Part shown: positions 22,833 through 58,740 of the stretch, piece after piece
Numbering within the stretch: the stretch's first letter is position 1
How the letters are laid out: the number at the start of each line of letters is the position of its first letter
Assembly (NCBI GenBank): GCA_965205265.1
Contig: CBDBGH010000003.1
Span: forward strand, 2,080,001 to 2,144,000
Direction of reading: 5' to 3'
Origin: Alphaproteobacteria bacterium
GTDB lineage: Bacteria; Pseudomonadota; Alphaproteobacteria; Bin95
Length of the DNA: 64,000 nt
Translations under genes and position numbers: made by a program
The notes under the pieces: generated by a model
Database searches by the model: none
Told to the model about the DNA's origin: nothing
The model's input: only the letters and a program-made list of their open reading frames with translations

Positions 22833-22993
22833 AATTCCTCCTGACCTCGCTTGACGGATTCCGGCACTGCCCAAGCGCCCGTCCCATCGCATTATAGCGG
22901 CTGTTCCCTGCATTTTTGCACGATCCCGCCGCCGGACATAGCCTCCGTTGTAGGCAATTCGCAGAGACTGGAGGTTACAACGGTCCGGGAGAG
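22833..22993. repeat. 161-bp direct repeat (target duplication), left of IS1634 copy 1
   Basis: Identical to 24910-25070. Confidence 0.95.
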
Positions 22994-24909
22994 CCTGACT
23001 TCGACAGTTGGGCTGACTTCTGACCGATCTCGCGTCTGGAGTTTTCAGTAAAGCCAATGAGTTGGCAGTTGCGGTGCGGTCAAGCTGCGTTGTAGTGCCT
23101 AGTAAATCTTTGAGACTGTCAATGCCTCCGCCACGCGCTACACTCCCCCCATGTTCGTGCGCATCAAGACCTCCCCCAACAGCCCGCGACGCTCGGTCCA
23201 GATCGTCGAGGCCGTGCGCGACGGCGGCAAGGTCCGACAGCGCATCGTCCGCCATGTCGGCGTGGCCATGGACGAGGACGAGCTCGAGCGCCTGAGGCAG
23301 CTCGGCGAGTACGTCAAGGCGAAGCTGGAGGACGAGCGTCAGCCGGCATTGTTTGCGCCCGAGAAGATCGCTGAGCAGGCGATCCGTGTCGGCCGCCGGG
23401 GGGACGGCAAGGAGGAACTCCCGGTCGACCTCAAGCAGCTTGAAGAGGAGCAGCGCCTGATCACAGGCATCCACGAGGTCTATGGCGAGATCTACCGGCT
23501 GCTGGGCCTCGACGCGCTGCTGCCGCGCTCGCGCTACCGGGCCTCCCATGACGCGCTGTTCCATGTGGTGATGGCGCGGGTAGCCAACCCCGACAGCAAG
23601 CGGGGCAGCGTGCGCCGGCTCGAGGAGGACTTCGGCGTGAGTCTTCCGCTCGAGAAGGTCTACCGGATGATGGATCAGCTCGACGCGACGGTGATCGAGC
23701 GACTGCGCACGCGCGTCGGCGAGGCGAGCCGGTCGCTGCTGCCGGAGCCGGTCGCGATCCTCTTCTTCGATTGCACCACGCTCTACTTCGAGACGGCCGC
23801 CGAGGACGAGCTTCGCCAGCACGGCTTCAGCAAGGACGGCAAACACAAGGACTCGCAGGTTCTGCTGGCGCTGATGGTGACGCGCGAAGGGCTGCCGATC
23901 AGCTACGAGGTCTTCCCCGGCGCCACCTACGAGGGACACAGCATGGTCCCGGTCCTGCAGGACATGCAGCGCCGCCACCAGGTGGAGCGCACGGTATGCG
24001 TGGCCGACCGGGGCATGCTGAGCGCCGACAACCTCGACGCCATGGACGCCATCGGCGGCGAGTATGTCGTCGGCGCGCGGCTGCGCAAGCTGCCGCTCGC
24101 GCTGCTGGGGCAGGTTCTCGACCCCGGGACCTATGCCCCGCTGGAGGGCTCACAGGACCGCCGGGTCGGCGAGTGGGAGTACAAGGGCCGTCGCCTGATC
24201 GTCGTCTTCTGCCCCCAGCGCGCACGCAAGGACGCGCACGAGCGCCGCCATCAGGTGGAACGCCTGCTCGACAGGCTGGCCCGCAGCGACAATCCCAGGG
24301 AACTGCTCTCCAATCACGGGGCGAAGCGCTTCATCGCCGTCGAGGGCGACGCACGGCTCACGGTGAACCCGGAGAAGATCGCCGAGGCCGCACGATGGGA
24401 CGGGCTCACCGGCGTCATCACCAATCTGCGCGACGCGCGCGTCACCGAAGTGATGGCTCACTACCAGGGGCTCTGGCAGGTCGAGGAGAGCTTCCGGATC
24501 ACCAAACACGACCTGAAGATACGTCCCATCTGGCACTGGAACCCGGACCGGATCCGCGCTCACATCGCCATCGCCTTCCTGGCCTTCGCCTGCGTTCGAC
24601 ACCTTGCGTACCGCGTCGCCATCCAGAAGCGGCGGATGTCCCCGGAGGTCATCCGCTCCGCCCTCGTCCACCGCCAGTGCTCCCTGCTGCGCTGTCGGCA
24701 ATCGGGCAACCGCTACGTCATCCCCTCGAAGCCGACACCGGCGGCGGAGCAGATTTACGCAACCATGGGGCTGCCCCTGACGATCACCCCGTATCAACTC
24801 GCCTGACCGTCGACGAAGCACGGCTCGAAGAAATGCCGGATGTAGTGCCTAGCCGAAATGAGAACCAGGCAATATCAACTACTTATGCGAATCAACCGTC
24901 GAAGTCAGG
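22994..24909 (+). mobile_element. IS1634-family insertion sequence, copy 1 (1916 bp)
   Basis: 17-bp terminal IRs CCTGACTTCGAC(A/G)GTTG; single transposase; near-identical to copies 2 and 3. Confidence 0.93.
23151..24806 (+). CDS. IS1634-family DDE transposase
   Basis: FFDCTTLYFE, GFSKDGK, VADRGM, YQGLWQVEESFRITKHDL.RPIWHW...IRAH. Confidence 0.93.
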   Translation: MFVRIKTSPNSPRRSVQIVEAVRDGGKVRQRIVRHVGVAMDEDELERLRQLGEYVKAKLEDERQPALFAPEKIAEQAIRVGRRGDGKEELPVDLKQLEEEQRLITGIHEVYGEIYRLLGLDALLPRSRYRASHDALFHVVMARVANPDSKRGSVRRLEEDFGVSLPLEKVYRMMDQLDATVIERLRTRVGEASRSLLPEPVAILFFDCTTLYFETAAEDELRQHGFSKDGKHKDSQVLLALMVTREGLPISYEVFPGATYEGHSMVPVLQDMQRRHQVERTVCVADRGMLSADNLDAMDAIGGEYVVGARLRKLPLALLGQVLDPGTYAPLEGSQDRRVGEWEYKGRRLIVVFCPQRARKDAHERRHQVERLLDRLARSDNPRELLSNHGAKRFIAVEGDARLTVNPEKIAEAARWDGLTGVITNLRDARVTEVMAHYQGLWQVEESFRITKHDLKIRPIWHWNPDRIRAHIAIAFLAFACVRHLAYRVAIQKRRMSPEVIRSALVHRQCSLLRCRQSGNRYVIPSKPTPAAEQIYATMGLPLTITPYQLA

Positions 24910-25070
24910 AATTCCTCCTGACCTCGCTTGACGGATTCCGGCACTGCCCAAGCGCCCGTCCCATCGCATTATAGCGGCTGTTCCCTGCATTTTTGCACGA
25001 TCCCGCCGCCGGACATAGCCTCCGTTGTAGGCAATTCGCAGAGACTGGAGGTTACAACGGTCCGGGAGAG
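24910..25070. repeat. 161-bp direct repeat, right of IS1634 copy 1
   Basis: Identical to 22833-22993; contains hairpin CCGTTGTA...TACAACGG and the STAS promoter and SD. Confidence 0.95.
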
Positions 25071-56768: not shown

Positions 56769-58553
56769 TGACGCGCTCCTCTACTCGGAAAAACGTCACC
56801 GTTCGCCCAGCCGACCGACCCCGCCAGAAGGTCCAGGAAAAATTTTTTGAGGCGGCGGCCCGGAACTCCGGTCGGGCTACGCCCTCCCTCCGTTCCGGGC
56901 CGCCGCCTTCCCCCGTCTCATCCTGATTGTCGCCAGCGTCTCAAGCTGATTGTCGCGCCGCAGGCCAGGAAGGCGATGGCGATGTGAGCGCGGATCCGGT
57001 CCGGGTTCCAGTGCCAGATGGGACGTATCTTCAGGTCGTGTTTGGTGATCCGGAAGCTCTCCTCGACCTGCCAGAGCCCCTGGTAGTGAGCCATCACTTC
57101 GGTGACGCGCGCGTCGCGCAGATTGGTGATGACGCCGGTGAGCCCGTCCCATCGTGCGGCCTCGGCGATCTTCTCCGGGTTCACCGTGAGCCGTGCGTCG
57201 CCCTCGACGGCGATGAAGCGCTTCGCCCCGTGATTGGAGAGCAGTTCCCTGGGATTGTCGCTGCGGGCCAGCCTGTCGAGCAGGCGTTCCACCTGATGGC
57301 GGCGCTCGTGCGCGTCCTTGCGTGCGCGCTGGGGGCAGAAGACGACGATCAGGCGACGGCCCTTGTACTCCCACTCGCCGACCCGGCGGTCCTGTGAGCC
57401 CTCCAGCGGGGCATAGGTCCCGGGGTCGAGAACCTGCCCCAGCAGCGCGAGCGGCAGCTTGCGCAGCCGCGCGCCGACGACATACTCGCCGCCGATGGCG
57501 TCCATGGCGTCGAGGTTGTCGGCGCTCAGCATGCCCCGGTCGGCCACGCATACCGTGCGCTCCACCTGGTGGCGGCGCTGCATGTCCTGCAGGACCGGGA
57601 CCATGCTGTGTCCCTCGTAGGTGGCGCCGGGGAAGACCTCGTAGCTGATCGGCAGCCCTTCGCGCGTCACCATCAGCGCCAGCAGAACCTGCGAGTCCTT
57701 GTGTTTGCCGTCCTTGCTGAAGCCGTGCTGGCGAAGCTCGTCCTCGGCGGCCGTCTCGAAGTAGAGCGTGGTGCAATCGAAGAAGAGGATCGCGACCGGC
57801 TCCGGCAGCAGCGACCGGCTCGCCTCGCCGACGCGCGTGCGCAGTCGCTCGATCACCGTCGCGTCGAGCTGATCCATCATCCGGTAGACCTTCTCGAGCG
57901 GAAGACTCACGCCGAAGTCCTCCTCGAGCCGGCGCACGCTGCCCCGCTTGCTGTCGGGGTTGGCTACCCGCGCCATCACCACATGGAACAGCGCGTCATG
58001 GGAGGCCCGGTAGCGCGAGCGCGGCAGCAGCGCGTCGAGGCCCAGCAGCCGGTAGATCTCGCCATAGACCTCGTGGATGCCTGTGATCAGGCGCTGCTCC
58101 TCTTCAAGCTGCTTGAGGTCGACCGGGAGTTCCTCCTTGCCGTCCCCCCGGCGGCCGACACGGATCGCCTGCTCAGCGATCTTCTCGGGCGCAAACAATG
58201 CCGGCTGACGCTCGTCCTCCAGCTTCGCCTTGACGTACTCGCCGAGCTGCCTCAGGCGCTCGAGCTCGTCCTCGTCCATGGCCACGCCGACATGGCGGAC
58301 GATGCGCTGTCGGACCTTGCCGCCGTCGCGCACGGCCTCGACGATCTGGACCGAGCGTCGCGGGCTGTTGGGGGAGGTCTTGATGCGCACGAACATGGGG
58401 GGAGTGTAGCGCGTGGCGGAGGCATTGACAGTCTCAAAGATTTACTAGGCACTACAACGCAGCTTGACCGCACCGCAACTGCCAACTCATTGGCTTTACT
58501 GAAAACTCCAGACGCGAGATCGGTCAGAAGTCAGCCCAACCGTCGAAGTCAGG

Positions 58554-58740
58554 AGGCCAACAGGAAAGCGGCGCCACGCACATTGCGTCGGCCTAGAGGC
58601 CGCTGGCGCAGGCTGAAACCCACGCTTCAGGCCACGCCCCTCACAGGCGGATATTGCGCGCCGCGTCCTCCGGGTCCCGGTGCAGGAATTCCGGGCCGAG
58701 CCGGTCGAGGGACGGGCAGCCGATCTGGGCCATGACCTTT
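58554..58740. repeat. 187-bp direct repeat, right of IS1634 copy 3
   Basis: Identical to 53654-53840. Confidence 0.95.

Follow-up and report, generated by a model that had tools for sequence, protein, structure and literature searches.

The locus raises the question of how one insertion sequence (IS) came to be flanked, at three sites, by perfect direct repeats (161, 93, and 187 bp), and by what kind of reaction repeats of such length could be made. The window analysed here is a stretch of 64,000 nucleotides, in which all three repeat pairs were recovered as the initial annotation had described them, with 0 mismatches and no further outward extension. Perfect repeats of 93 to 187 bp that abut an element exactly cannot be attained by chance. 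The features of the element and its insertion sites in the window are:

22833..22993, no strand: 161-bp target duplication of site 1, left copy, identical to 24910-25070
22994..24909, plus strand: IS copy 1, IS1634 family, 1916 bp, intact (blastn; terminal inverted repeats)
23151..24806, plus strand: transposase gene of copy 1, 551 aa (Pfam DDE_Tnp_1; NCBIfam transpos_IS1634)
24910..25070, no strand: right copy of the 161-bp target duplication of site 1, identical to 22833-22993
40967..41059, no strand: 93-bp target duplication of site 2, low-coordinate side, identical to 42976-43068
41060..42975, minus strand: IS copy 2, intact, its transposase (41163-42818) identical to that of copy 1
42976..43068, no strand: second copy of the 93-bp target duplication of site 2, identical to 40967-41059
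53654..53840, no strand: first copy of the 187-bp target duplication of site 3, identical to 58554-58740
53841..58553, minus strand: IS copy 3, interrupted by an IS21-family element
54176..56958, minus strand: nested IS21-family element, ~2.78 kb, borders approximate (Pfam IstB_IS21; NCBIfam transpos_IS21 and IS21_help_AAA; reading of the ends)
54433-55272, minus strand: IstB of the nested element
55269-56768, minus strand: IstA of the nested element
58554..58740, no strand: second copy of the 187-bp target duplication of site 3, continuous with the intact FMN_dh gene
58641-59864, minus strand: FMN_dh gene (FMN-dependent dehydrogenase), intact

The three IS copies were 100% or 99.9% alike, and their termini carried 17-bp inverted repeats that agree at 16 of 17 positions and start with CCTGAC. 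The proteins had been called identical from the outset, which is correct for copies 1 and 2 (551/551 residues) and wrong for copy 3, where the IS21-family element interrupts the transposase gene after residue 478. This nested element ends in an imperfect terminal inverted repeat, and was seen in multiple copies in two relatives of the genome (G005 and G015).

Assignment to the IS1634 family, likewise proposed at first sight, was borne out by the NCBIfam profile NF033559 (transpos_IS1634), which matched the transposase with 341.3 bits against a cutoff of 100 and covered profile positions 1-482 of 483; the runner-up profile, IS4, scored 45.8 bits and stayed below its cutoff of 115, and the Pfam domain was DDE_Tnp_1. 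In an alignment of 28 homologues, D207, D286, and E445 were invariant, with 159 residues from D286 to E445, and a Y-x2-L-x3-E-x6-K motif was found in which Y438, L441, and E445 are invariant, K452 is conserved in at least 90%, and L replaces the R of YREK. The section of PMC2266710 that defines the family lists a DDE triad, a YREK signature usually missing its R, and a long spacer before the E, and its family table gives element lengths of 1500-2000 bp and termini of the form C-----YT. The 1916-bp IS fits this length and these termini: both ends start CCTGACTT, in which position 1 is C and positions 7-8 are TT. An AlphaFold model of the transposase (pLDDT 80) had Tn5 transposase as its nearest fold (E 3e-6; TM 0.39-0.45 over ~450 columns), and a sequence-profile search of solved structures returned 0 matches.

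By the same source, the norm in the family is an AT-rich target duplication of 5-6 bp, from which IS1634 and IS1549, with 8-514 bp, are exempt (PMC2266710). The element studied here departs from that norm, as only 2 of 54 duplications were this short and the median was 143 bp. Such an atypical duplication length is a known exception within the IS1634 family and no ground for exclusion, and, in the natural insertions and one between-sample polymorphism examined, these features of the long-repeat subgroup were found: repeats of tens to hundreds of base pairs, variable from copy to copy, with a single-copy empty site.

Target duplications across the genome

Sixty-one two-ended copies were found genome-wide, all at least 99.9% identical: 55 were intact (uninterrupted full-length copies, counted by blastn of the genome), 5 were split by other elements, and 1 was split by a copy of the IS itself. 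Short-read contig depth in run X19 (9554 for the IS vs 150 for its flanks) gave an independent figure of about 64 copies. Perfect flanking repeats of 5-573 bp were present at 54/61 copies and abutted both IS ends exactly, while three further repeats (76, 100, and 172 bp) were divided among different copies. Repeats that are shared by different copies are the mark of recombination between IS copies, and one reciprocal exchange between two copies was documented. Among repeats of at least 30 bp, 40 of 48 occurred exactly twice in the genome. Three copies had neither a repeat nor a partner flank, and a search for imperfect repeats at the copies that lacked one found none at three copies. At the copy at C3:3854289, a 24-nt match displaced by 87 nt was seen, which is unexplained. 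The idea that repeats of similar length might be the same sequence was rejected, since their comparison gave no more than 3 partial, unrelated matches. The initial annotation had also taken three copies in 36 kb as a sign of activity, but such a density is not unusual in this genome: copy spacing was not different from random, and neither clustering nor local hopping was significant.

Related genomes and other samples provided several views of the unoccupied sites. The target of site 1 was single-copy in the relatives G007 and G005, where the match to the left flank plus repeat overlaps that to the repeat plus right flank, and the target of site 3 was single-copy in G005 by the same overlap; for site 2, only the flanks aligned in G015 (69-76% identity) and the 93-bp repeat itself was unaligned. 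A 10,948-nt contig from run X21 joined position 22832 directly to 24910, so that 2077 bp (the IS and one repeat) were absent with 0 other letters changed; this is a short-read contig, of a kind that can collapse repeats, and the empty allele it carries may be the ancestral state or the result of excision. Contigs from run X19, also short-read, stopped where the repeats and the IS begin or end, the pattern that an occupied site should give, and runs X23 and X24 had thin coverage, with a flank depth at site 1 of just 0-13. Judged by these comparisons of sequence, the repeats are true target duplications, which upholds the original reading through the single-copy empty sites in related species and the exact empty allele in X21. 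Current or recent activity, which had been claimed as well, is supported because the copies are near-identical, the repeats perfect, and the site-1 insertion polymorphic between samples.

The same pattern was found in at least five other assemblies and two finished plasmids. A wider survey yielded 77 related loci, 74 of which could be grouped and 68 of which had both ends found, with hosts that are marine metagenome-assembled genomes of 39 to 70% GC. Repeats of 16-1318 bp were present at 49/68 of these loci, and the base after the cut (position +1) was A at 73/98 junctions; in a sister element of 93% identity, it was A at just 6/14. The annotated plasmid-borne members of the family showed at most 31% identity to the transposase, and distant plasmid-borne members (28-29% identity) had repeats in 2 of 4 cases, of 74 and 58 bp. 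The duplicated length differs between copies: it spans 5 to 573 bp in this genome and reaches 1.3 kb in sister elements.

Junctions and repeat lengths

Aligning the junctions in strand-transfer orientation showed that both outer repeat borders share the motif 5'-A-W-S^A (53 copies, 106 junctions). Position +1 was A at 82/106 junctions vs a background of 16%, position -1 was G or C at 98/106 and T at 2, and position -2 was A or T at 78. Left-end and right-end junctions were alike (paired test p=0.70). The outer borders of each duplication are the two strand-transfer sites, and the earlier proposal that the two transfers occur far apart is supported by finding the same position-specific motif at both of them. 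The two junction scores of a copy were statistically independent (Spearman -0.16, p=0.25), so that a "first" and a "second" junction are indistinguishable; the search for an asymmetry between them gave no significant result, apart from one weak hint, in that the lower of a copy's two scores was on average below that of random pairs (P=0.028). A rule by which the second end stops at the nearest motif was tried and rejected, as equal-or-better sites numbered 1947 inside repeats vs 1830 in equal stretches outside. The orientation of the IS relative to the direction of replication showed no bias (30:30).

Junctions fell inside predicted coding sequence at 37/106 positions vs 285/400 random positions, using a crude coding predictor and no gene annotation. 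The claim that the element copies whole promoters and gene ends was supported in part only: most junctions fall outside predicted coding sequence, and the first 187-bp repeat holds a spare version of the last 100 bp of the FMN-dependent dehydrogenase gene.

Repeat lengths were analysed as natural junction pairs, 106 in all, of which this genome contributes 57 (54 flanking, and 3 that recombination has split) and its relatives 49; pooled tests used 105. Lengths from this genome follow an exponential law roughly (KS p=0.52, CV 0.87). Short lengths are continuous, at 5, 6, 8, 11, 14, 16, 21, 25, 29, 33, 38, and 46 bp. In the pooled set, 38% of lengths were 100 bp or less. The lengths have a broad mode near 80-200 bp. 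The 10.5-bp periodicity that the initial annotation had proposed to look for was absent from the 53 own lengths (Rayleigh p 0.83 at 10.5 bp), and the minimum p across periods of 9.5-11.5 bp was 0.14 for these and 0.065 for the 105 pooled lengths. A mild clustering of lengths was seen (36 pairs within 3 bp vs 24 expected, P=0.017) and is unexplained.

Routes to a long duplication

The element is very probably a recently active IS of the IS1634 family, each insertion of which duplicates a target of variable length through two separated strand transfers. If the chemistry is the standard one of DDE transposases, the two 3'-OH ends of the element would each join an opposite strand of the target with a 5' stagger as long as the repeat, and the stretch between the joints would be copied by host DNA synthesis, either by gap filling with strand displacement or by a fork resembling that of replicative transposition. 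It would appear that no rigid synaptic complex fixes the distance between the two transfers, because the lengths are gapless from 5 bp, follow an approximately exponential law, lack helical phase, and show no stop at the nearest motif.

Repeats that were not made by insertion at all, whether assembly artefacts, pre-existing tandem repeats that were targeted, or later duplications around a short one, would have to be considered for a metagenome-type assembly with an estimated contamination of 7.3%, in which repeats are difficult to assemble. The chance of this is nevertheless close to nil, given the single-copy empty sites in relatives and the exact empty allele in another sample, the X19 contigs that break where those of an occupied site should, repeats that adjoin both IS ends to the base in 54/61 copies, a position-specific motif at the outer borders that random duplication would not be expected to produce, and the recurrence of the pattern in other assemblies and on finished plasmids. 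If a single synaptic complex joined both ends at once to a target that is looped or wrapped around protein, the leading idea of the initial annotation, the stagger would be set by the length of looped-out DNA. This would explain why the motif is the same at both junctions and why neither end is favoured, as from equivalent active sites; the nearest fold belongs to a paired-end-complex enzyme, and the broad mode of lengths would fit loops aided by DNA-bending proteins. This route is nonetheless rather unlikely: more than a third of the pooled lengths fall at or below 100 bp, lengths are continuous from 5 to 46 bp, a range too short for a loop of double-stranded DNA and one in which a rigid complex would yield a single length, and no 10.5-bp phase was present in own or pooled lengths, a result that counts against rigid looping or wrapping of the target.

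Insertion at a replication fork or into sister duplexes, perhaps guided by the beta sliding clamp, would turn the offset between the two ends into the duplication. An IS1634-family transposase is described as using a C-terminal Q-x-x-hydrophobic-hydrophobic motif to bind the beta clamp (PMC4549789; review PMC5371812), and the strength of this binding is reported to set the transposition rate of a member of the family (PMC4549789). In the transposase studied here, Q509-C-S-L-L near the C-terminus, with Q509 and S511 at least 90% conserved, is a candidate clamp motif, and a sliding clamp would give unphased offsets that decay with distance. Against this, Q509-L513 is placed by the AlphaFold model in a predicted beta strand of the folded domain, with no free tail, the 30:30 orientation shows no link to replication direction, and the clamp-binding Acidiphilium element is reported with 6-bp repeats, so that clamp binding alone would be insufficient for long ones (PMC4549789). 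The ends might enter the two new sister duplexes behind the fork, or lagging-strand structures; hits on sister duplexes should yield target deletions about as often as duplications, but at least 57/61 copies trace to duplications. On this balance, the route as a whole is improbable.

The model that I tentatively prefer, on the statistics of the junction sequences, is a sequential reaction: one end would integrate first, and the second would follow at some preferred site close by on the opposite strand, with synthesis from the first nick possibly already displacing the target strand by then. A second integration linked to synthesis in this manner would fix the polarity and yield an exponential law of lengths. 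More cautiously still, the two strand transfers may be chemically equivalent and uncoupled in space, probably also in time, with a distance between them that follows a roughly exponential law and is possibly set by the run of synthesis. The order and timing of the two transfers are not readable from sequence; here I infer the sequential model. The fixed polarity is weak evidence, as only 5'-staggered products are seen and 3'-staggered attacks might occur and fail.

If the sequential model is true, it would be a mode of integration not described for cut-and-paste DDE elements, and insertions would be gentle, with one intact promoter or gene end kept, and reversible by recombination between the long repeats. 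Since the element would copy intergenic DNA and gene ends, a gene struck close to its end would remain complete on one side of the insertion, and homologous recombination between the long repeats could remove the element exactly. About 60 sites in this symbiont-type genome carry such duplications of intergenic DNA and gene ends, and the IS copies supply many substrates for recombination.

Relation to known long-duplication elements

Long variable repeats have been described before, for IS1634 and IS1549, and the element described here is a further case; its value lies in a large natural data set on the long-duplication mechanism. This standing of the two elements had been correctly stated at the outset and agrees with what PMC2266710 says of them, namely, direct repeats of 8-514 bp with "no mechanistic model" as of 2008 for duplications of tens to hundreds of bases. 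No later mechanistic model for them was found in the literature searched. The junction pairs constrain any such model: both ends share the cut-site motif, helical phasing is absent, short lengths are allowed, the length distribution is roughly exponential, and replication direction introduces no bias, all for an element with exactly defined transposase and ends.

The element resembles IS1634 (Mycoplasma mycoides subsp. mycoides SC) and IS1549 (Mycobacterium smegmatis) in family profile, a single DDE transposase of ~550 aa, a length within the family range of 1.5-2.0 kb, high copy number, and long variable repeats, a likeness drawn from the family profile and from published descriptions. M. mycoides PG1 is listed with 60-65 IS1634-family copies (PMC3053259; PMC2266710). 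Unlike these two, the element has as its host an uncultured high-GC alphaproteobacterium, with its closest relatives in marine metagenome-assembled genomes. Within the family, ISGka5 of Geobacillus kaustophilus (PMC8024623) and the element of Acidiphilium sp. PM, as described in PMC4549789, made 6-bp duplications in experimental transposition, whereas duplications of 5-6 bp are the rare exception here, so not every member of the IS1634 family makes a long stagger.

Restriction-modification gene insertions also leave long variable target duplications, shown against an empty site (PMC2853133; Furuta, Abe and Kobayashi 2010), but these units, as that report presents them, have no transposase and no terminal inverted repeats, in contrast to the DDE transposase and defined ends found here. 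Tn5 / IS50 transposase (IS4 family) shares the fold match, the DDE triad, and the Y...E...K signature after the third catalytic residue, although sequence similarity is below profile detection and L takes the place of R in YREK. Tn5 makes a fixed 9-bp duplication via a rigid paired-end complex.

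The element and its transposase

The three pairs of direct repeats in the initial annotation were borne out, with 0 mismatches and no extension beyond their ends in 3/3 pairs, and all of them enclose one and the same 1916-bp element.

22833-22993 = 24910-25070: site 1 direct repeat, 161 bp, perfect match
22994-24909 (+): IS copy 1
40967-41059 = 42976-43068: site 2 direct repeat, 93 bp, perfect match
41060-42975 (-): IS copy 2
53654-53840 = 58554-58740: site 3 direct repeat, 187 bp, perfect match
53841-58553 (-): IS copy 3
~54176-56958: IS21-family element nested in copy 3, with IstA at 55269-56768 (-) and IstB at 54433-55272 (-)

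The element termini start CCTGACTTCGAC; over their outermost 17 bases the two ends agree at 16/17 positions. The encoded proteins had been described as identical, which holds for copies 1 and 2 (551 aa) but not for copy 3, whose transposase gene is cut after residue 478 by the 2.78-kb IS21-family element. Relatives of this nested element are multi-copy in the related species G005 and G015 (87% and 78% identity).

The 551-aa protein carries the Pfam domain DDE_Tnp_1, and it scores 341 bits (cut-off 100) in a full-length match to the NCBIfam IS1634-family profile. Across 28 aligned homologues D207, D286, and E445 do not vary, and the signature Y438-x2-L441-x3-E445-x6-K452 is a YREK motif without R, exactly the trait that divides the IS1634 family from IS4 in PMC2266710. 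The solved structure closest to the AlphaFold model (mean pLDDT 80) is Tn5 transposase (E 3e-6, TM 0.39-0.45); a sequence-profile search of solved structures returned 0 matches. Homologues at 50-99% identity come from metagenome-assembled genomes (MAGs) with titles naming Alphaproteobacteria, Candidatus Poriferihabitaceae, Pseudohongiella, and Pseudomonadales, and annotated relatives on plasmids share at most 31% identity with the transposase.

A blastn search of the whole genome (the window's contig is 5.46 Mb of a 5.70-Mb assembly) yielded 55 full-length uninterrupted copies, 5 split by other insertions, a further 1 split by its own kind, and 2 left-end fragments, none of them below 99.9% identity to copy 1. 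Contig depth in sequencing run X19 (9554 for the element, ~150 for its flanks) corresponds to ~64 copies, in line with the assembly. Perfect direct repeats abut both ends of 54/61 two-ended copies, and 40 of the 48 repeats of at least 30 bp occur exactly twice in the genome.

Lengths (bp) of the 54 perfect direct repeats
1-18: 5, 6, 8, 11, 14, 33, 38, 46, 49, 49, 51, 64, 67, 67, 71, 82, 82, 90
19-36: 91, 92, 93, 107, 112, 116, 134, 138, 143, 146, 151, 161, 161, 165, 170, 185, 187, 198
37-54: 200, 200, 201, 203, 205, 215, 287, 288, 326, 338, 374, 454, 455, 466, 528, 567, 568, 573

Seven copies have no repeat of their own. Some of their orphan flanks match flanks of other copies, which marks recombination between IS copies later than insertion, and a 76-bp stretch is common to two of them; for 3 copies the missing repeat stays unexplained. 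Elsewhere in the source genome, oppositely oriented copies at G000:C3:4892940-4894855 and 5202993-5204908 have 100- and 172-bp repeats exchanged crosswise, and this arrangement indicates a ~310-kb inversion via IS-IS recombination. The copy at G000:C3:3854289-3856204 has no abutting repeat, and the 24 nt that close its left flank reappear, unexplained, 87 nt into the right flank. At G000:C3:4596309-4600231 a copy sits inside another copy, having duplicated 91 bp of IS sequence (the outer copy's target duplication is 215 bp), so that there is no sign of self-immunity. Two same-orientation copies 66 bp apart at G000:C3:2239812-2243709, with 46- and 51-bp duplications that overlap by 31 bp, indicate two successive insertions within one ~66-bp stretch.

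Empty sites and the junction motif

Empty sites, which the initial annotation had proposed as a check, were found as single-copy targets for site 1 (related species G007 and G005, and sequencing run X21) and site 3 (G005). The 161-bp repeat of site 1 has a single match in each of the two species, where the left flank with the repeat and the repeat with the right flank map overlapping on one stretch. The corresponding segments of site 3 overlap likewise in G005, the 187-bp repeat being aligned once (186 nt, 90% identity), while flank matches for site 2 were weak, occurred in one relative only, and were left out of the evidence. A tandem pair of diverged paralogues at window positions 58588-60899 (84-86% identity, spacing 1325-1331 bp) includes an FMN-dependent dehydrogenase gene (58641-59864), and this paralogy complicates the mapping of empty sites in G007. 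One junction of site 3 lies 100 bp inside this gene, which is intact because the adjoining repeat copy supplies its end.

The strongest evidence for a target duplication at site 1 is a contig of 10,948 nt from X21, a different sample within the same study, that joins window position 22832 straight to 24910. It skips 2077 bp, the sum of the element (1916) and a single repeat (161), and has 0 other differences over the 5 kb compared, in an assembly of short reads, which can collapse repeats. Contigs of X19 break off where the repeat and the element begin or end, which fits an occupied site 1. The empty allele in X21 could be ancestral or a product of repeat-repeat recombination; through homologous recombination, long repeats would let the element be lost exactly, a possible explanation for this allele. 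Whichever its origin, it shows that the target is present as an exact single copy and that the samples are polymorphic here.

Outer repeat borders were oriented as strand-transfer sites (target strand 5' to 3', cut set before the base joined to the element's 3' end), giving 106 junctions from 53 copies. Immediately after the cut, at +1, A occurs in 82/106 junctions (genome 16% A). Before the cut, at -1, G occurs 69 times, C 29 times, and T twice; A/T occupies position -2 in 78/106 and A position -3 in 42/106, with positions beyond -3..+1 close to background. Left-end and right-end junctions showed no difference in pattern (paired test p=0.70), and no correlation was found between a copy's two junction scores. 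The end motifs suggested as a further check take the form of a sharp position-specific preference at both borders. The junctions show where the two strand transfers took place and that sequence preference is equal at both, and since the motif is the same at both ends, both repeat borders were chosen by the transposase. This supports the earlier proposal that the two strand transfers occur one repeat length apart. Later duplication or assembly error as the source of the repeats is ruled out by the motif at both borders.

Predicted coding sequence holds 37/106 junctions versus 285/400 random positions scored with the same crude predictor, and the repeats have 62.6% GC versus 68.2% for the genome. 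The A/T-containing motif, selection, or the two together may account for the coding avoidance and lower GC.

Distance between the two strand transfers

Standard DDE chemistry joins the two 3'-OH ends of the element, one to each target strand, leaving a 5' stagger. This stagger would be filled by host synthesis, and over hundreds of bases strand displacement or a loaded fork would be needed. The repeat lengths follow an approximately exponential law (mean 178, CV 0.87, KS p=0.52, fitted gamma shape 1.26), and lengths pooled with those of relatives leave no empty 10-bp bin between 0 and 100 bp. The 10.5-bp periodicity raised in the initial annotation was not significant: for the 53 own lengths, the Rayleigh test gave p=0.83 at 10.5 bp and a scan minimum of 0.14 that 90% of jittered controls reached, and for 105 pooled lengths the minimum was 0.065 over 41 periods. 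Nor did I find a nearest-motif rule, as sites scoring at least as high as the used one numbered 1947 inside repeats versus 1830 in equal outside stretches, or a replication-direction bias (orientation 30:30, direction judged by cumulative GC skew). A mild clustering of lengths is unexplained (36 pairs within 3 bp versus 24 expected, P=0.017).

These statistics suggest two active sites without a fixed distance between them, because the single length of a rigid paired-end complex was not seen. A sequential reaction, possibly timed by synthesis starting at the first nick, is tentatively favoured and would account for the exponential law as well as the polarity. Less likely is a target loop, flexible or assisted by protein; a loop of double-stranded DNA should produce helical phase and exclude lengths of ~15-60 bp, yet the phase was not seen and such lengths are present. 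Still more doubtful is a fork- or clamp-linked route. The transposase of another family member binds the beta sliding clamp according to PMC4549789, and the present transposase contains a candidate motif, Q509-C-S-L-L, but this lies within a predicted strand of the structural model, and the clamp-binding Acidiphilium element described there shows 6-bp repeats. Missing target deletions are weak evidence for any model, sequential or otherwise, because 3'-staggered events may simply fail.

Long duplications in related elements

A set of 77 related loci was retrieved. Of the 74 that were grouped, 68 had both element ends located by conserved termini; perfect flanking repeats of 16-1318 bp (median 138) were present in 49/68.

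Flanking repeats of related elements
90%-identity element: 19/21 copies, 46-1318 bp
93%-identity element: 7/9 copies, 85-1309 bp
57%-identity element, 48%-GC genome: 14/20 copies, 16-259 bp
50%-identity element, 39%-GC genome: 4/7 copies, 59-202 bp
Rhodococcus plasmid member: 74-bp repeat
Actinomyces plasmid member: 58-bp repeat

The +1 base is A in 73/98 related-element junctions, the exception being the 93% element (6/14). Long repeats occur in 2/4 plasmid-borne family members (28-29% identity); a Sulfitobacter plasmid member has clear inverted ends and no long repeat was found there, and the fourth is rearranged. Given these MAG loci and plasmid members, long duplications are widespread in the IS1634 family, yet not universal.

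Long variable duplications are already known for IS1634 and IS1549, and PMC2266710 gives long variable direct repeats of 8-514 bp as their hallmark, a mechanistic model being still lacking in 2008. A literature search for a mechanism of long duplications found none, the original IS1634 and IS1549 descriptions being outside its reach. Relative to PMC2266710, what is new is quantitative, namely the large junction set and the symmetric cut-site motif; new too are the negative tests of helical phasing, of a nearest-motif rule, and of replication orientation. Perfect repeats of sister elements at the MAG loci L029 (1309 bp), L050 (1318 bp), L034 (978 bp), and L030 (751 bp) exceed the 514-bp maximum cited there.
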